From positions 64,001-128,000 of the IMG/VR virus record IMGVR_UViG_3300033553_000338: DNA of 64,000 nt; one strand, written 5' to 3'. A program made the position numbers and the translations under genes. Positions within the stretch are counted from its first letter, which is position 1. Every line of letters starts with the position of its first letter. Positions 10,405 to 31,713 of the stretch are shown here, one piece after another. The notes beneath the pieces are model-generated. The model was not told the DNA's origin and made no database searches. It was given only the letters and a program-made list of their open reading frames with translations. The stretch comes from a virus.

Positions 10405-10754
10405 ACCACCTCCGAATCAAATTCATCTTCATACAGAAACCCGTCATTCGCCAGGACCTCCGGGCTACTATCGTCACTGCTGTCGTAACAAAACCGGCAC
10501 TTAAATTTTTCTTTACCCTTCTCCAGACGATCCCTAAAGAGCCTTCGCATATCCTTTAATTTCCAGTTGTCCGGAAATTTGCTACTCTCTTTGTAAGAGT
10601 ATCCAGCCTCTGCACTCCACACTTCAAATGAGACCCACGTAGTTCCATTGAACTGGTAAATCTTCTCGGTGTATACCGCATCGGCAGCAAGTGTCTTTGC
10701 GAACTTTCTTAAATCATTTTTAAGCATTTTCTTCAATTTTATCAATAATCTCAA
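10392..10754 (-). CDS. Hypothetical protein
   Basis: ORF in operon order, preceded by the phage promoter motif at 10808-10827. Confidence 0.55.
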   Translation of the reverse strand: MRLLIKLKKMLKNDLRKFAKTLAADAVYTEKIYQFNGTTWVSFEVWSAEAGYSYKESSKFPDNWKLKDMRRLFRDRLEKGKEKFKCRFCYDSSDDSSPEVLANDGFLYEDEFDSEVVWTY

Positions 10755-10839: not shown

Positions 10840-13047
10840 TTATTCTAGGGGCATAAATTCTAAATCAGAGAAAGGTACAAGGACGAATGCCGGACTTTTC
10901 CCTTGCACGTATCCCCCCGGTAATACAGCTGTGTCAAAGAACCCTGCCATTTTCCGTGTCACTGGGCCTTTGTAGGCTGTCATAGTTACAGAACTCATGT
11001 TATCTCCTTTACGAAGGGATATAAGGAATTCTTCCCTTGAACCATCATTGAGTCGTTTAGTTATAACTGCATGAATAACTATGTTTTGTGGAGCTACACC
11101 GTTAAGAACAGTAGCCCGTAATTCAGTGGTAATTGATGATTCATACTGGCCAGTTGTTACGAATCTTAAATCTACAGTAGGAGATTCCATGCCACTTGGC
11201 GTAAGCTCGCTATCGTAGTAGGTCACTCCGGACGTTTCGTAGATCAGGACAATGGCCCCTGCCGGGGTGATTAGAACATTCCCGAAATAAATGTTGGTTG
11301 CCGGCTTTGGGGTACCTTCAGATAATCCACCTACCGGTTCCTGTCCGTTGGTTCCCCGGGTGGTTGTACCCGATACCAGGTACTTGCCGGTCATGGGCAT
11401 GTACTTAACGGTGAGCCCTATATTGGTCTCTGAAAGAATTGGAAAAGCGTTATCGTATTCAAGTATTTTGATATTTTTCATATCCCCTCCAAACATTGCA
11501 AGCGTTGGAGTCTTAGGGTATGCTGTGGCGGCTCTCAAGTGATACTCAATCGTGTTGGGGATTCCGGGGATTCCAGAGTACCTGACAAAGAGGTAAAATT
11601 GATAGTTATCAGGTACATTCACATCTACCTTATCCTTAACGTACAATACCTGATTCGGGACATTGGCTGGATTGAATAGTTGAACAGTCTTGACCTTGGT
11701 TAACTCGGTATCGTAACGCACGAGTACAGGAGTGATTGTAACAGTGCCACCACCCTGATAGAATGAGGTAGTATCATCGTATCCGAAAAAGAAGGCGGCA
11801 TCTTCCTGAATATCACCACTTATTGATGATCCCTGAATTGAGGTTACCACCACACTACTATCAGTGCCCAGCAGCGGATTCTCTTCAGGGTTAGGTATAA
11901 TTATTTCCTCAGCTATCTCTGAAACAACCAAAGGTGTCAGGGCCGCGAAGTTTACTACATCCTGATTGAACACCAAATCCCCAGAAGGGGTAAAGGTTCG
12001 GTCCCCCTGGCCAAAAATGTTACGGGCATATTGCTTTGTGACGATATCGATCTCCACCACATCTTTGGATAACACCAAGGTCTTCCATTCCAGAATACCC
12101 GAATTACTAGGGATTCCTACGCGAACGCTCACATCATCATCCCAGGAACCTGCGGGGATACTCTTCTGGATCTTCCAGGTTACCGTGATGTCCGTATCCG
12201 AACTTACTGCATTGACCAGATCCGGGAAAACCGAAAAGTCCAGCTTACCCCCGGTGGATCCAATCTGCAGGTAATCGCTATTGCCGGCATACACTCCTTT
12301 ATCTGAGTGCTCCCCAAAGTGCAGGTAGGAAAATGTTCCCTGGCTTCCGGGGCTCTTCCGAAGACATACAATTGTTGAGGCTACTGCTCCGGGGAGTAAT
12401 TCCCCGTTGGCAGCATCAAATGCAAGGATTACTCCTCTGCGTCCTTTGATCTCAGCAAGATCTTCCGCAGCCCGGTCATAGTTCCCAAGGGAATCCAATA
12501 TCCTCAAGGCCGTAGGGATCTGCTCCACATCATCAACCAGAACTTCCATTTCAATACGCTCACCTGCCGGGATTACACCGGTTTCTGTGGTTGCGCTCAC
12601 CAACCATTTCTGGAACTTTGCGCTCTCACCAGCTGCTAGGGCAGGGGGGTTGATCTGGGTTATTACCCAGTAGTTGTACCATGTTACATTAAATGTGTAA
12701 CTGGTTTCCAATCCCGGGAAGTATAAAGAGAAAGTTGCCTCGTTTCCGAAGTTATCGATGCCCGGTGACCCAATGGCCCGGTCCATGACATTTACGGTAA
12801 CGGTGAGTGGCTTGTCCGGCAGGACAGCATCATCACTCAAAACCACATCATACCGGGACTCGGTATCACTCAGCTGCAGATTCACAGCCTGGCCCAGCTC
12901 CCCGGTAATGTTTACCTGGAACTCAATACGGGCAGCACCGGCAATGGTACTACGTCTTCCTTGAAATAAATTTCCGAAATTCAGACTGTAACTTGACTCA
13001 CCTGCTAATGAAAACCTTCCATCCGCAGAACTTACTGATAATACCAT
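10840..13047 (-). CDS. Large beta-rich protein, probably virion-associated
   Basis: 735 aa, V/T/G/S-rich, in the late arm; family not recognised. Confidence 0.55.
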   Translation of the reverse strand: MVLSVSSADGRFSLAGESSYSLNFGNLFQGRRSTIAGAARIEFQVNITGELGQAVNLQLSDTESRYDVVLSDDAVLPDKPLTVTVNVMDRAIGSPGIDNFGNEATFSLYFPGLETSYTFNVTWYNYWVITQINPPALAAGESAKFQKWLVSATTETGVIPAGERIEMEVLVDDVEQIPTALRILDSLGNYDRAAEDLAEIKGRRGVILAFDAANGELLPGAVASTIVCLRKSPGSQGTFSYLHFGEHSDKGVYAGNSDYLQIGSTGGKLDFSVFPDLVNAVSSDTDITVTWKIQKSIPAGSWDDDVSVRVGIPSNSGILEWKTLVLSKDVVEIDIVTKQYARNIFGQGDRTFTPSGDLVFNQDVVNFAALTPLVVSEIAEEIIIPNPEENPLLGTDSSVVVTSIQGSSISGDIQEDAAFFFGYDDTTSFYQGGGTVTITPVLVRYDTELTKVKTVQLFNPANVPNQVLYVKDKVDVNVPDNYQFYLFVRYSGIPGIPNTIEYHLRAATAYPKTPTLAMFGGDMKNIKILEYDNAFPILSETNIGLTVKYMPMTGKYLVSGTTTRGTNGQEPVGGLSEGTPKPATNIYFGNVLITPAGAIVLIYETSGVTYYDSELTPSGMESPTVDLRFVTTGQYESSITTELRATVLNGVAPQNIVIHAVITKRLNDGSREEFLISLRKGDNMSSVTMTAYKGPVTRKMAGFFDTAVLPGGYVQGKSPAFVLVPFSDLEFMPLE

Positions 13048-26671: not shown

Positions 26672-28282
26672 CTATAGGTCACTGAAGGCATCATCGCTGG
26701 TCTCCATTTCCTCCTTACCGGTGATCATACACTCTGTAGTGAGGATCATCCCTGCAACTGAGGAAGCATTGAGTAAAGCATTCTTTGCAACCAATGAAGG
26801 GTCAATTACTTTGGTGATTAGCATATCTCCAAAGTCACCAGTCCGTAGGTTCAGGCAAGAATGTATATCTCCCTTAAGAATCATTTCAGCAGCAGAGCCG
26901 ATGGCGTTCTTTTTGCCGGCATTTGTAAGAATGCACTGAAAGGGAGCATGTAATGCTTGCTTCATGATTTCCCAGGCGATAACGTCATGGGTGTTTGAGC
27001 TATTGTAGCTTAATACTGAAGCAGCTCTCAGGTAAGTGGCACCACCACCGGGCACAACTCCGTCTTGGATAGCCGAACGACAGGCCGCGAGAGCATCGTC
27101 AATCCGGTCAATCTTTTCGCGGATCTCAAATTCGGAGTATGCTCCAACATTGATTGTTGCAATACCCCCGGTGAACTTCGCGTAACGCTGACGGTTTTTC
27201 TTCAAGTCAAACTCATCATCTGATGAGGCTACTTGTTTTTCGATAATCTCTTTACGCAGAGCCTTAAGCTCATTGCTACCATGTCCACCAATAATGGTGG
27301 TTGAGTTTTCGGTAACGATTACTTTCTCAGCTGATCCCAGGTACACAGATTTAAAGGATCCCAACAGATAACCTCTGTCCGGGGCAAATACAGTTGCACC
27401 GGTCATAGCTGCTATGTCATCCAAAGTCTCAACGCGGTAGGAACCGTGTTCCGGTGTATGAGTAGCACAAATTTCTACAGCTCCTTTCATCCGGTTTAGG
27501 ATAAGGTTGTTTAATACTTTCTGATCGTACTCATTGGCAATGATCAGTATAGGTCTTTTTTGCTCTTTGGCATAAGTAAGTACCTGGACAATTTCAGCTA
27601 CCTTTTCAATCTTTGCCTGGCACACTAAGATCAATGGGTCTTTAAGGATACACTGTTTTTTGTCCGGAGTATTGGAAAACTGACTGTTAAGGAATCCTTT
27701 CATGTACTCCAGACCATCGGTGAAGGTCACAGTTGTTTCAAAAGATGAGGATTCACCCAGTTCAATGACCCCCTGGTATCCAATACGGGAATAGGCCTGG
27801 TAGATTAGGTTTCCGATCTCTGTATCATTGTTCGCGGATATTGTGGCCACTTCACGCAGGATGTCCAGGTCTACCGGACGTTTTACACGGTCGATAAACT
27901 CTACAATCTCCTGAACTCGCAGGTCGATGCAACGCTTAAGCTCGACAGGATTGACATCTTTTTTCAGTGCCTCCATGCCCAGCTTGGTGATTGCATGTGC
28001 TAAAACCGTAGCAGTGGTTGTACCGTCACCGGCATCATCGGAAGTCCTGGAAGCTACCTCCTTTACAATGTTAGCTCCAAGGTTCTCAAAGGGATCCTCA
28101 AGGGTAATACTTCGGGCCACAGTCACACCGTCTTTGGTAATGTGGGCTTTTCCGGAGTTTCTTTCAATAATCACATTTCGTCCCATAGGCCCTAAGGTGA
28201 CTGAGACTGCCTTTGCAAGGATGGTCAATCCACGAAGGATTGCTTCCCTTGACTCATCGTTGAATTTAATTTGTTTTGCCAT
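26672..28282 (-). CDS. groEL: Chaperonin GroEL (Cpn60), 536 aa
   Basis: MAKQIKF...VTLGPMGRNV, ITKDGVTVA, GDGTTTATVLA, GVVPGGG; no GGM tail. Confidence 0.96.
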   Translation of the reverse strand: MAKQIKFNDESREAILRGLTILAKAVSVTLGPMGRNVIIERNSGKAHITKDGVTVARSITLEDPFENLGANIVKEVASRTSDDAGDGTTTATVLAHAITKLGMEALKKDVNPVELKRCIDLRVQEIVEFIDRVKRPVDLDILREVATISANNDTEIGNLIYQAYSRIGYQGVIELGESSSFETTVTFTDGLEYMKGFLNSQFSNTPDKKQCILKDPLILVCQAKIEKVAEIVQVLTYAKEQKRPILIIANEYDQKVLNNLILNRMKGAVEICATHTPEHGSYRVETLDDIAAMTGATVFAPDRGYLLGSFKSVYLGSAEKVIVTENSTTIIGGHGSNELKALRKEIIEKQVASSDDEFDLKKNRQRYAKFTGGIATINVGAYSEFEIREKIDRIDDALAACRSAIQDGVVPGGGATYLRAASVLSYNSSNTHDVIAWEIMKQALHAPFQCILTNAGKKNAIGSAAEMILKGDIHSCLNLRTGDFGDMLITKVIDPSLVAKNALLNASSVAGMILTTECMITGKEEMETSDDAFSDL

Positions 28283-28354
28283 ATTATAACTAGAATTATT
28301 ATCTAGTAAGAATATAATCAAAAATTGTCGTATAATCAATCTTAATTATTACTT

Positions 28355-29014
28355 TTGAAGCATTTTATCATGGAATATAAAGAACTCGAAGAACTTGTAA
28401 AAGCCGAAAAGGTTGAGTATATCATCATGGCTGATGGGACTAAAGCCAGGTTATTCATTTCAAACATGGATCGCCTTTGCAGATTTAAACCCAAATCTTC
28501 CAGAAGAGGGTATGTCCTATCCGAAGTTGATGTTAACACACTTCAGGCAATTGTGTACCTGAAAGAAAAAACCCAGGAGGATCTGGATAAAGATGAATTC
28601 AAGCTCATCTCAAAATACCGGAAGCTTGCGGAGAAATCCAGCTTCACAAATCCCTTTATTGAGGATTGTCGGTTTCTTCCTGCCACTTTGGAAGAGTGGG
28701 TTAAGCAAGGTAAGAAGAGCCTGTATGACTATCGTATCACCACTGGAAACCGGATTGATGGGAAGGTTATTACGCTTGACAAAATTTTCAGACTGTACCC
28801 AGAGGCAGTAAACTCCTTCAGGGATGCCATTAGAAAGAAAAGGGAAAGTAGGCATTCAGGTCCTATGGATGGGTATGATATGACAATCAGTACCCAGAAG
28901 AGGGGAGATGGTACCTTTGTAGGGTACCTTGCTATGGAGTTCAAGGGATGTGCCAATGGTTATTACTATGCCCTAATCAATGACAATACTTTTATAGGTG
29001 TTGATGTTGATTAA
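28355..29014 (+). CDS. Hypothetical protein
   Basis: 219-aa ORF after a promoter with a TACTTTTG box. Confidence 0.75.
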   Translation: MKHFIMEYKELEELVKAEKVEYIIMADGTKARLFISNMDRLCRFKPKSSRRGYVLSEVDVNTLQAIVYLKEKTQEDLDKDEFKLISKYRKLAEKSSFTNPFIEDCRFLPATLEEWVKQGKKSLYDYRITTGNRIDGKVITLDKIFRLYPEAVNSFRDAIRKKRESRHSGPMDGYDMTISTQKRGDGTFVGYLAMEFKGCANGYYYALINDNTFIGVDVD

Positions 29015-29346: not shown

Positions 29347-29377
29347 TTTGTATAATAGTTTTTAATGATTAAATTCG
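29347..29377 (+). promoter_or_regulatory. Promoter of the RNA island
   Basis: TTTG-N19-TAAATTCG containing the GTATAA-N6-TTAAT motif. Confidence 0.65.
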
Positions 29378-29382
29378 TGTAT

Positions 29383-29752
29383 TGTATGGCGTAAGCTATT
29401 CGATATAGTTCAATGCTACATTAAGTCGCATGTTTGGACCCGGGTTCGATTCCCGGCATCTCCACTCGTAGTCCAATTAAAAGAAGAAGTTGTCCGGGTA
29501 ATTCCCGGCTGATCTTAGGAGATTTTTGGGGTAGCCTAAGAAAGAATGACAAAAACATTTTCGGAAGTACTATAGGTACGTTATACCGGATTTGCCCATC
29601 CACGGGGATGACTGGTTTTGACAGGTGTGTAGAAGTGATGTAGGGAACACAAGCAGTTTTTTAAACGGCAAAACAATTCCATTATTTAGCAACGCGCAGG
29701 TCAGACTTGCAGCGTAGTTAACGGTTTCTCCTGGCTCCGTAATGCCGGGAAA
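29383..29752 (+). ncRNA. ssrA: Circularly permuted (two-piece) tmRNA: acceptor piece ~29383-29464, intervening segment, coding piece 29604-~29752
   Basis: The 3' module GGAC-CCGGG-TTCGATT-CCCGG-CATCTCC-A comes before the 5' module GGGGATG-ACTGGTTTTGAC. They form a 7-bp acceptor stem with G3:U70. P2 pairings TGATGTAG/CTACATTA and GAAC/GTTC. Tag 29667-29717 = GKTIPLFSNAQVRLAA*. Confidence 0.88.
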
Positions 29753-29753
29753 T

Positions 29754-29893
29754 GGGAAAGTAGCTCAGTTGGTAGAGCTGGAGGCTGAACGCCTCTGGAG
29801 AGCCTCGGAAACACGGATGCGTGTTTTGTCAGTAAAGGCCAACGAATCGGGGGACATCCCGAAAGTGCGTAGGTTCGAGTCCTACCTATCCCA
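29754..29893 (+). ncRNA. Oversized tRNA-like RNA (140 nt; GAA at the anticodon position; ~70-nt variable domain)
   Basis: Acceptor GGGAAAG/CTATCCC, D arm GCTC-AGTTGGTA-GAGC, GGAGG-CTGAACG-CCTCT, T arm GTAGG-TTCGAGT-CCTAC. Confidence 0.75.
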
Positions 29894-29912
29894 CAACTAA
29901 AATCAGCTATTA

Positions 29913-30100
29913 TGGTAGTTTACCCTTTAGTAGCGGATGTGCCGAATGTGACAATCTTTGCGAAATGCATTGAGATCCGGTGGTTCTATAAAATCGAAAA
30001 ACCACTGGGTAAATTAACCAAGAACACTTGCCTTAGGCCGAATTTGGGGTTCGGTAACTAAGCAAAGCACATTCGTAATCCCGGGATGGTTTATCCCGGG
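29913..30100 (+). ncRNA. Unassigned structured RNA (~190 nt)
   Basis: Multiple nested stems plus a long-range CGAATGTG/CACATTCG pairing; lies between two tRNA-like genes. Confidence 0.55.
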
Positions 30101-30105
30101 TACAA

Positions 30106-30194
30106 GGAGAGTTGGGTAAGAGGCTTAAGCCACCGGTTTGCTAAACCGGCGTACAGATTAAACTGTACCGGGGGTTCGAATCCCTCACTCTCCG
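30106..30194 (+). tRNA. tRNA-Ser(GCT)
   Basis: Acceptor GGAGAGT/ACTCTCC, G73, CCGGT-TTGCTAA-ACCGG, long variable arm, T arm with TTCGAAT loop. Confidence 0.93.
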
Positions 30195-30205
30195 CTGAAA
30201 TGTAT

Positions 30206-30333
30206 AGGGATATGACGGAATTGGTAGACGCTAAAGATGGAGGTATGAAACAATCAAGCTGCATTGTGCATGATGTGTAGAGCATGTTAGTAATATCTGT
30301 GAAGTCGTGCAGGTTCGAATCCTGCTATCTCTT
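30206..30333 (+). ncRNA. Oversized tRNA-like RNA (128 nt) with expanded anticodon domain
   Basis: Acceptor AGGGATA/TATCTCT, Leu-type D region ACGGAATTGGTAGACG, T arm GCAGG-TTCGAAT-CCTGC; no canonical anticodon arm. Confidence 0.7.
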
Positions 30334-30345
30334 AAAATTAAACAT

Positions 30346-30519
30346 GTATGTCTGTCCCAGTTGGGGGAGCATCTGGAGCACAAGGAAAGGGAGTCATGCC
30401 CCGGAACTTGTGTTCATGTACAATACCTGGAGTTTTTGTAAAAGTGTACATATTACACAAACTCCAATCATTGTCTTATGGAAACAAAAGGATGTAGGGT
30501 TCGAATCCCTGGATATACT
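30346..30519 (+). ncRNA. Oversized tRNA-like RNA (174 nt) with multibranched, pseudoknotted insert
   Basis: Acceptor GTATGTC/GATATAC, D arm TCCC-AGTTGG-GGGA, T arm TAGGG-TTCGAAT-CCCTG. Confidence 0.65.
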
Positions 30520-30526
30520 CTGATAC

Positions 30527-30615
30527 AAAAGACGGAAACAGGCATCGGTCCGGATTTGAATGGAGATACCATAGGCTTTCAGCGTAGGCTGATGATGCGG
30601 AAAACTAAGTCTTTT
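30527..30615 (+). ncRNA. Unassigned structured RNA (~90 nt)
   Basis: AAAAGAC/GTCTTTT, GCATC/GATGC, TCAGC/GCTGA and TGG/CCA stems. Confidence 0.45.
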
Positions 30616-30620
30616 TATCT

Positions 30621-30687
30621 GGACCTCTATCACTTTAGAATGGTTGCCCTTGGCTCAAGGGTTCAGGTTCGATTCCTGAGAGGTCCG
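30621..30687 (+). ncRNA. Minimal tRNA-like RNA (67 nt), non-canonical D and anticodon arms
   Basis: Acceptor GGACCTC/GAGGTCC, T arm TCAGG-TTCGATT-CCTGA, hairpin CCCTTG-GCT-CAAGGG. Confidence 0.6.
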
Positions 30688-30724
30688 CTTAGTTGGTTGG
30701 TTAGTTTTTTAGTGTTGGTTTTTT

Positions 30725-30796
30725 AGGTCTTTAGCTCAGTTGGAAGAGCGTTAGGTTCACCCCTAAAGGTCCCGGGTTCGAGTCCCGGAAGGCCCC
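30725..30796 (+). tRNA. tRNA with a 6-nt anticodon loop (TTCACC; Val-CAC-like, identity uncertain)
   Basis: Canonical D arm GCTC-AGTTGGAA-GAGC and T arm CCGGG-TTCGAGT-CCCGG; stem TTAGG/CCTAA; A1:C72 mismatch. Confidence 0.7.
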
Positions 30797-30810
30797 CAAA
30801 TTTAGTAACA

Positions 30811-31026
30811 ATGTTCACAGATAAAGTAAAGACAATGACACTCTTATCAGTAATTGCAGTAATAGTTCTATACTTAACCGTCTTCTACAGTTTCATACTG
30901 CCTAAGATGATCTACAGTGAGTCTAATTTTATTGCATCAATGGGGAGTTTCCTATTCTTTACCAGTCTGATAGCACTCTTGATTTTAATTAACATTTTTA
31001 AATATTTTCTTTTTATTAATCCTTAA
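30811..31026 (+). CDS. Small two-TM membrane protein
   Basis: Two hydrophobic segments. Confidence 0.6.
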   Translation: MFTDKVKTMTLLSVIAVIVLYLTVFYSFILPKMIYSESNFIASMGSFLFFTSLIALLILINIFKYFLFINP

Positions 31027-31038
31027 ATTTTATCAAAA

Positions 31039-31443
31039 ATGAAGAAGTACATTGTTGTTTTATTGCTAGTACTTAGCGCGTGTTTGATCCCGCAGATTGA
31101 CTGGGATCCTGGAGAAGGCTTGGATAAGCCTATTGTAGAAAATTGTATTGATTGCCCTGCCAGCATGGTTCAGGGGGTTACCGCGTATCAGATGATCCAC
31201 CAGGACATCAATCAGGTAGTGTATGCTCCTTTGGAGTATCAACCTTTGTCAGTGGAATCCACCGGTTTAAATCCAAAGCAAGCGACTCTACCAGAGAGTT
31301 TTCAGCGATTTCGACCCCAGAATAGTCTACAGGCGAAGTACCATCTATACAATACCATAAGCAAATTGAATCCCGAGTACATGGACCAGCATATTGATGC
31401 AACGGTCTTACGACACATTACAACTCAGGAATACCAGGTTTAG
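31039..31443 (+). CDS. Putative lipoprotein/secreted protein
   Basis: MKKYIVVLLLVLSAC signal peptide with an LSAC lipobox-like motif. Confidence 0.65.
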   Translation: MKKYIVVLLLVLSACLIPQIDWDPGEGLDKPIVENCIDCPASMVQGVTAYQMIHQDINQVVYAPLEYQPLSVESTGLNPKQATLPESFQRFRPQNSLQAKYHLYNTISKLNPEYMDQHIDATVLRHITTQEYQV

Positions 31444-31470
31444 CCTACAAAAGAAAGTACAATAAATAAT

Positions 31471-31503
31471 AAAAATCAGGTAGGGTTTTCTCTACCTGAT
31501 TTT
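31471..31503. terminator. Hairpin/terminator
   Basis: AAAATCAGGTAG-GGTTTTCT-CTACCTGATTTT. Confidence 0.65.
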
Positions 31504-31508
31504 CACAA

Positions 31509-31671
31509 GGGGATTAAGCTGTTGGACCAGCCCGGGGAGAATGTACCTGGAGAGTGTTTGTGGAGCGTGAAGCATATCCGAGGATTTAAGATAGCCTAAG
31601 GTAACACATAACGGTGTGTGAAATACAGAATCCTAAAAGTAGCCACTGAGGTTCGAGTCCTCAAATCCCCA
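31509..31671 (+). ncRNA. Oversized tRNA-like RNA (163 nt) with large variable domain
   Basis: Perfect acceptor GGGGATT/AATCCCC, D arm GCTG-TTGGAC-CAGC, T arm TGAGG-TTCGAGT-CCTCA. Confidence 0.7.
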
Positions 31672-31713
31672 CAATAATTCAGTATTTAAAATCAATCTAT
31701 TAAATAAATACTC

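Follow-up and report, generated by a model that had tools for sequence, protein, structure and literature searches.

The window analysed here, a stretch of 64,000 nucleotides, runs from base 64001 to base 128000 of a phage genome in IMG/VR, which is complete at 157,880 bp and has direct terminal repeats. The portal protein and the large terminase match PHROGs of the crAss type, and a tblastn search of the terminase against the GenBank phages gave crAss-like phages as the best matches, at 27-34% identity. A GroEL-type chaperonin is encoded on the - strand (26672-28339; Cpn60_TCP1, 2e-62). It is 44% identical to the GroEL of Bacteroidales, which points to a host within the Bacteroidota. In relatives of the phage a Cpn10 gene adjoins the terminase gene (L018:12348-12968 and L022:13372-13986). 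Between the chaperonin gene and the region of interest lies a gene for a 219-aa protein (28355-29014) without a match in Pfam or PHROG. Its family comprises 195 clusters at E<=0.001 and 31 at E<=1e-30, and also occurs in an unrelated mobile element that carries resolvase and DUF932 genes. Since the family is widespread in unrelated mobile elements, it is no marker for the region that follows.

An island of tRNA-like modules beside a permuted tmRNA

Downstream of this gene an island of 2.3 kb without convincing protein genes was found (29375-31672, + strand), which carries a tmRNA and tRNA-like elements with a total of eight T-arm modules. For the T-arm motif GGTTCGANTCC, 0.13 copies would be expected in the window and eight are present; the rest of the genome has none, and the eight lie between 29443 and 31660, all on the + strand. 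The first module, E1, belongs to a circularly permuted tmRNA (29417-29717; Rfam RF04321, 67.5 bits), of which it is the acceptor piece. The permuted tmRNA region (29375-29752) encodes the tag GKTIPLFSNAQVRLAA and has a G3.U70 pair between GGGGATG and CATCTCC. The second, E2 (29754-29893), scores 42.8 bits as an Rfam tRNA and has a GAA anticodon arm and an insert of about 72 nt in the variable region. It resembles a Phe(GAA)-type tRNA with a C at position 37, and its insert is structured (z -1.97). ARAGORN can alternatively build a one-piece tmRNA model in which the 3' half of E2 supplies the 3' end. E3 (30106-30195) is a normal tRNA-Ser(GCU) and the only fully canonical module in the island; a blastn search of the island against 50,697 GenBank phages returned matches to tRNA-Ser only. 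E4 (30206-30334) has a T arm, and its fold is no better than that of its shuffles (z +0.39), which suggests that some members of the island may be decaying. The spacers between E3 and E4 and between E4 and E5 measure 10-12 nt and are AT-rich.

E5, the subject of the following sections, is separated by an unassigned 102-nt spacer (30520-30621) from E6 (30622-30691), a 70-nt tRNA stub with a perfect 7-bp acceptor stem, a T arm, a weak D arm and no variable loop. At its anticodon position E6 can form either a hairpin of 7 bp with a 3-nt loop or a 5-bp stem with the loop TGGCTCA. E7 (30725-30797) scores 52.7 bits as a tRNA, and its anticodon loop, TTCACC, is 6 nt long. The anticodon given by ARAGORN has 2 bases ('ca'), there is an A1.C72 mismatch, and opening of one stem pair gives an alternative 8-nt loop that contains TCA. 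Long ORFs are open in translation table 11, so that no obvious stop-codon recoding is indicated. Two small ORFs for membrane proteins or lipoproteins (30811-31026 and 31039-31443) then interrupt the RNA island, followed by a 15-bp hairpin (31469-31506) that has U tracts on each strand and looks like a terminator in either direction; it lies directly upstream of the last T-arm module, E8 (31509-31672). The island shows no conspicuous promoter signal of the sigma-70 or Bacteroidetes type.

The inserts of E2, E4, E5 and E8 open with T|GGAG (at 29796, 30238, 30374 and 31548), which is also present at 30561, in the spacer before E6. From its frequency in the window, the string TGGAG would be expected about 4 times in the 2,451-nt island, where 10 copies are present. 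Candidate readings of this signal are that the inserts have a common origin, that it marks a processing site, or that it provides a U(-1)/G(+1) context of the RNase P type.

The tRNA frame and the insert of E5

E5 is a 174-nt element (30346-30519, + strand) in which the ends and the elbow of a tRNA are kept around an insert of 127 bases (30369-30495). The acceptor stem consists of 7 bp including one G.U, formed by GTATGTC (30346-30352) and GATATAC (30512-30518) with a mean pair probability of 0.96; the 3' strand continues into the discriminator T (30512-30519 together), and CCA is not encoded. The D arm (30355-30368; TCCC/AGTTGG/GGGA) has a 4-bp helix with a probability of 0.60, and A14, G15 and the elbow-contact GG can be read from its sequence. 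The T arm (30496-30510; AGGG/TTCGAAT/CCCT) forms with a probability of 0.95, and a fifth pair, T30495-G30511, is possible. The element thus has the 7-bp acceptor stem, the TTCRANY T loop and the GG in the D loop by which a tRNA frame was defined, and the + strand fits both the orientation of the T loop and the G.U pairs of the acceptor stem and of arm A (see below). The insert is closed by a helix of GCATC (30369-30373) with GATGT (30491-30495), which has a probability of about 0.67, encloses 115 nt and directly abuts the T stem, leaving no variable region. An earlier note on this DNA had placed a CATCT/GGATG helix at the anticodon-stem position. Its CATCT strand is the GCATC strand in a register shifted by one. 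The helix itself is present; the positional label holds only approximately, because there is no variable region and the closing helix abuts the T stem.

Within the insert two long arms are predicted. Arm A (30376-30415) has a 9-bp stem with one G.U, formed by GAGCACAAG (30376) and CTTGTGTTC (30407), followed by an internal loop GAAA/CGGAA and a GGG/CCC cap with an 8-nt loop, AGTCATGC; both helices pair with a probability of 0.99. Arm B (30428-30466) consists of 8 bp between TGGAGTTT (30428) and AAACTCCA (30459), with a probability of 0.97, an extension of 5 bp past a U.C mismatch (TGTAA/TTACA, 0.90), and an 11-nt loop, AAGTGTACATA, which contains the palindrome TGTACA. A further helix between ACAAU (30420-30424) and AUUGU (30470-30474), with pair probabilities of 0.75-0.91, stacks under arm B and lengthens it toward the junction. 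A weak, irregular hairpin (30475-30490; 0.6-0.8) completes the insert. The tRNA frame, the closing helix and arms A and B described in the earlier note are therefore borne out, and every string quoted there was found in place, including CATCT at 30370, GGATG at 30490, ATGTACA at 30416 and TGTACAT at 30445. The third arm proposed there, TTGT/ACAA, is disfavoured, with a pair probability of about 0.01; the ACAAU/AUUGU helix forms instead.

The predicted fold is strong. The whole RNA has a minimum free energy of -56.5 kcal/mol (z -3.18), and the insert alone (30369-30495) reaches z -3.86; in either case none of 200 dinucleotide shuffles was as good. The reverse strand of the insert is of nearly equal stability (z -3.21), and inverted repeats at the level of the DNA could thus explain much of the structure. 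This similarity of the two strands, together with the perfect Watson-Crick inverted repeat of arm B, favours the main rival explanation, according to which E5 is a decaying tRNA gene that has acquired hairpin-forming DNA and has no function as an RNA. That explanation fits less well with the intact acceptor, D and T elements, with the extreme stability of the insert relative to its shuffles, and with the G.U pairs of arm A and the acceptor stem, which are mismatches at the DNA level.

The junction segment ATGTACA (30416-30422) and the loop segment TGTACAT had been proposed to form a 7-bp pseudoknot. Their complementarity exists: each segment holds a copy of the palindrome TGTACA, and the flanks are complementary too. 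As evidence for a pseudoknot it is at chance level, since at least one perfect 7-bp Watson-Crick match is found in 39% of 2,000 dinucleotide shuffles of the insert. The proposed pairing competes with the ACAAU/AUUGU helix, which takes up 30420-30422. Unpairing both strands costs 2.4 kcal/mol, because this helix is lost, and the isolated duplex contributes -5.9 kcal/mol, so that the pairing is energetically possible. It is sterically strained: with the extension of arm B intact, the 3' linker would have to span the 7-bp helix with 1 nt and the 5' linker the 13-bp stem with 5 nt. Judged by the usual H-type geometry, we infer that full pairing would need the 5-bp extension of arm B to melt. The pseudoknot thus has no support, though it is possible.

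The same architecture had led to the suggestion that the insert could bind a ligand or a protein, or be catalytic. An aptamer, or a self-cleaving or self-splicing ribozyme, on a tRNA scaffold would be in line with a compact multibranch fold with internal loops, and with nothing more specific. We regard it as very improbable: no riboswitch or ribozyme family matches E5 at E<=5, the pseudoknot match is no better than chance, the third of the proposed arms is thermodynamically disfavoured, there is no conservation that would define a binding pocket, and an RNA of this tRNA-like kind, acting in trans, has no expression platform downstream of it. By-eye checks for the 11-nt GAAA-tetraloop receptor, the sarcin-ricin/loop E motif and a 5S-like reading gave no match in E5. 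A mimic of the initiator-tRNA anticodon stem was considered for arm A, where GGG/CCC surrounds CAU, and was rejected, as it is one position out of register.

E5 lacks a decoding arm, and searches found no homologue

A canonical tRNA was taken to be a sequence that reaches the 29-bit gathering threshold of RF00005 or is predicted by a tRNA caller. E5 does neither: it is not called by ARAGORN, even with the intron search and a 90% threshold, and an Rfam search at E<=5 found no tRNA (RF00005), intron, riboswitch, aptamer, ribozyme or other family. Nor does it contain a decoding arm, as defined by a 5-bp stem, a 7-nt loop, U33, a purine at position 37 and a variable loop of at least 4 nt. Every internal segment of at least 30 nt was removed in turn and ARAGORN was run on each product. 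Calls were obtained for only 53 variants of E5, and 52 of these 53 lack approximately 30367-30470 and have the anticodon AUG. For E2, by contrast, the same scan gave 576 consistent Phe(GAA) calls. The arm that is rescued in E5 (30471-30487; TTGTC/TTATGGA/AACAA) appears only after deletion of 101-103 nt. It has four pairs and a C.A mismatch, its anticodon starts with A34, and the variable loop next to it measures 7 nt.

The rescued arm bears on the view that E5 is an intron-bearing tRNA precursor from which about 100 nt are removed and the halves joined. Such splicing would have a published precedent in the 'enigmatic introns' of the Lak megaphages, unexplained tRNA insertions in phages that infect Bacteroidales (PMC6784885). 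With 30367/8-30468/70 removed, ARAGORN calls a tRNA-His(AUG) in which this arm has U33 and a purine at position 37, and the AAGGATG before the T stem resembles, by eye, an ordinary variable loop such as the AGGTC of E7. Even so, we consider this explanation improbable. Few deletion variants give a call, three of the four pairs of the rescued arm are A-U and are accompanied by the C.A mismatch, and the 7-nt variable loop also speaks against it. An A at anticodon position 34 is rare in bacteria, and the excision site, between positions 26 and 27, is no known bacterial intron site. The insert, at 101-127 nt, is too short for a group I intron (about 200 nt or more), and as no Rfam intron family was found at E<=5 the reading of E5 as a tRNA with a group I intron was rejected. 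Finally, the complete phage genome encodes no RtcB and no RNA ligase with which the halves could be joined.

The genome was also found to lack genes for a CCA enzyme, SmpB and a Ro60/TROVE protein. In the absence of a CCA enzyme, RNA ligase and RtcB of the phage, any maturation of E5 must fall to the tRNA enzymes of the host. The search for Ro60 bears on a further explanation, a Y-RNA mimic of the YrlA type that works with the Ro60/Rsr ring protein of the host. A TROVE control search does match Bacteroides thetaiotaomicron, which belongs to a possible host lineage. The missing TROVE gene in the phage, the absence of an RF02553 match on E5 and the topology of the ends (YrlA ends at the anticodon-side stem, E5 at the acceptor stem) leave this explanation with only a slight chance of being correct. 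Several other assignments were rejected. E5 is not a tmRNA: its pair 3-70 is A3-U70 rather than G3.U70, no tag frame is called, and the only tmRNA that ARAGORN and Rfam find is the permuted one next to it. Nor is an antisense role apparent, as complementarity to the rest of the phage genome is at chance level, the best non-self matches being 12-16 nt long (E ~1.3). E5 was also judged not to code for protein; the ORFs that overlap it have no Pfam or PHROG match.

Searches for relatives were made at the level of the element and of the phage. Exact or degenerate patterns of the T-arm/acceptor anchor of E5 found nothing in IMG/VR, the JGI metagenomes or the GTDB genomes, and the pattern of arm B found nothing in IMG/VR. 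The covariance model of E5 (model R1), run on the window, on L020, L019, L017 and L002 and on the T4 locus, recovered only E5 itself and ordinary tRNAs, with which it shares the frame. One of these loci, L017 (MT835539.1, 3300-7500, - strand), is a fragment of a distant crAss-like phage with an array of about 10 tRNAs. It includes a tRNA of the ochre-suppressor type (UUA), and its Trp, Arg and suppressor tRNAs, of 85-91 nt, have unusually long extra arms. Close relatives of the phage were sought in IMG/VR with GroEL, a PAPS-reductase-like protein, rIIA and TerL, and none was found; the best GroEL matches were Bacteroidales genes (44% identity) or bacterial loci. Relatives of TerL and the DNA ligase at 62-69% identity were present in a collection of 5.8 billion proteins, all but one of them on contigs of 1.5-8.5 kb; at least five relatives, with a TerL that is 64-68% identical, are represented by such fragments. 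The phage is thus almost an orphan.

The exception is a syntenic relative, the 37.5-kb Logan contig SRR29063593_15403 (loci L018-L020), with a TerL that is 65% identical. Its island has the same neighbours: on the upstream side the 219-aa gene is conserved, and of the 251-aa gene on the downstream side the C-terminal domain is present. Between these flanking genes lies a homologous permuted-tmRNA-like gene (L020:9708-9940) with the tag GKTIQMNFAQVRLAA, likewise homologous, compared to GKTIPLFSNAQVRLAA in the present phage; it scores only 28.9 bits and seems to be without a clean T arm. A tag pattern common to both phages found nothing in the JGI metagenomes or IMG/VR. The island of the relative contains three tRNA-like modules that cannot be called by ARAGORN: R1 (10641-10733) resembles E2 at the 5' end, in R2 (about 10991-11097) a T arm is accompanied by two hairpins, of which one has the loop ACUGUACAC, and R3 (11281-11361) resembles E8 at the 3' end. 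R2 and R3 begin with T|GGAG at their 5' ends. The loop ACUGUACAC of R2 (L020:10991-11097) contains UGUACA, as does the loop of arm B in E5, which may be a coincidence, since this genome has a TGTACA roughly every 2.7 kb. No orthologue of E5 was found in the relative by blastn or with the E5 covariance model, from which it follows that E5 is young or turning over quickly. In a more distant relative (a 106-kb contig, TerL 45% identical) no T-arm motif occurs in the 20 kb upstream of TerL.

A tmRNA-adjacent island of non-canonical tRNA look-alikes is thus common to at least two phages, with members that turn over quickly, and its presence in the syntenic relative suggests that the class of elements is maintained. 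The lack of an E5 orthologue in a phage with 65% TerL identity, and the fact that most members of the island are defective as tRNAs while E4 is unstructured, add to the case for decay. Yet a non-coding island of 2.3 kb has been kept in a compact genome, and an equivalent island is found in the relative. Weighing these points together with the fold, we consider it rather unlikely that E5 is a tRNA gene in decay. If it is, the island records an unusually rapid birth and death of tRNA-like genes beside a phage tmRNA.

A non-decoding RNA on a tRNA frame, and its known counterparts

The intact frame, the lack of a decoding arm, the array of modules on one strand and the absence of maturation enzymes in the phage together lead to the reading that we prefer, with about even confidence: E5 is a non-decoding small RNA on a tRNA frame, the cargo of which would bind or titrate some macromolecule. 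It would most likely be transcribed together with the seven other acceptor/T-arm modules. As E5 keeps the acceptor/T-arm stack, the TTCGAAT loop and the GG of the D loop, the tRNA enzymes of the host should process it: RNase P would cut the 5' end, and 3' trimming and the CCA-adding enzyme would finish the 3' end. The tRNA frame would then serve both as a processing handle and as a stabiliser. In place of the anticodon and variable regions E5 is predicted to carry a domain of 127 nt, with the closing helix, two long rigid arms and a multibranch junction, and because of this replacement it probably cannot read codons. By analogy with what has been proposed for the species 1 RNA of phage T4, the cargo most likely binds or titrates a macromolecule of the host or the phage. 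The 6-nt D loop and the missing variable loop, which might impair tRNA-like folding, count against this reading, and the homologue searches, being empty, gave no sign of purifying selection on E5 itself.

A wider reading, bold and in our estimate unlikely, is that the island is a natural toolkit of several stable, tRNA-scaffolded small RNAs that pass through the maturation pathway of the host, with interchangeable cargos that each engage a different host or phage factor, and that it represents a new class of RNA in crAss-like phages. The T|GGAG start is common to the cargos of E2, E4, E5 and E8. In such a toolkit, the three-way-junction cargo of E5, with the palindromic UGUACA in its 11-nt loop, could dimerise by a kissing interaction, or the loop could pair with the copy in the junction. 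The crAss-like phages are among the most abundant viruses of the Bacteroidota, and their non-coding RNAs are almost unexplored. If E5 and its neighbours are made and processed like tRNAs and yet carry folded domains of an unrelated kind, this would show that phages use the tRNA frame as a natural scaffold for expression and stabilisation, a trick that engineers have adopted independently. The whole island is more interesting than E5 alone.

Compared with known systems, E5 takes its place among the non-decoding tRNA-like RNAs of phages, as a real and strongly folded element that is so far an orphan; the predicted branched cargo at the anticodon position is its distinctive feature. The likeness to engineered tRNA scaffolds that the earlier note had pointed out holds only at the level of the architecture: E5 has retained the acceptor, D and T arms, and its cargo opens from a helix at the anticodon position, although E5 is natural and the variable loop is absent. 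The tRNA-like domain of tmRNA, which is represented in the same island, shares the acceptor/T-arm module, the reduced D region and an anticodon stem that has become a helix into a large domain. E5 differs from it in the absence of the G3.U70 alanine identity pair and of a called tag frame, and is far smaller. The YrlA-type Y RNAs (RF02553) also combine tRNA mimicry with a non-decoding function, on a different end topology. The Lak megaphages of Prevotella carry unexplained 'introns' in their tRNA genes that have no Rfam classification (Devoto et al. 2019, PMC6784885). Like the insert of E5, these are insertions in the tRNA genes of phages with a Bacteroidales host (probably, in the case of the E5 phage). 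The Lak inserts interrupt classifiable tRNAs with readable anticodons, whereas no single excision turns E5 into a credible tRNA.

The closest known object is the T4 species 1 RNA (rnaC; NC_000866, 70908-71046, with rnaD), described in the T4 record as a small, stable RNA. It too is located inside a phage tRNA cluster and is of similar size (139 nt). Its T-arm core (GGTTCGAATCC) is identical, with a terminal stem that closes it, and the decoding arm is replaced by two long hairpins of high stability (z -4.57). E5 fits a loose description of this type (a phage tRNA cluster, a T arm with a terminal stem, and hairpins for the decoding arm), the type being no curated family. The covariance model of E5 did not match rnaC or rnaD; its sole match in the T4 locus was an ordinary tRNA gene at E=0.39, which reflects the shared frame. 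Expression is established for rnaC and proposed for E5. E5 also differs in its full 7-bp acceptor stem, its D arm, and its arms, which are placed on a closed multibranch junction. The question of what T4 species 1 RNA does has been open for some fifty years. If E5 and its neighbours are indeed processed like tRNAs, E5 would provide a second and very different system in which to ask what molecules of this type do.
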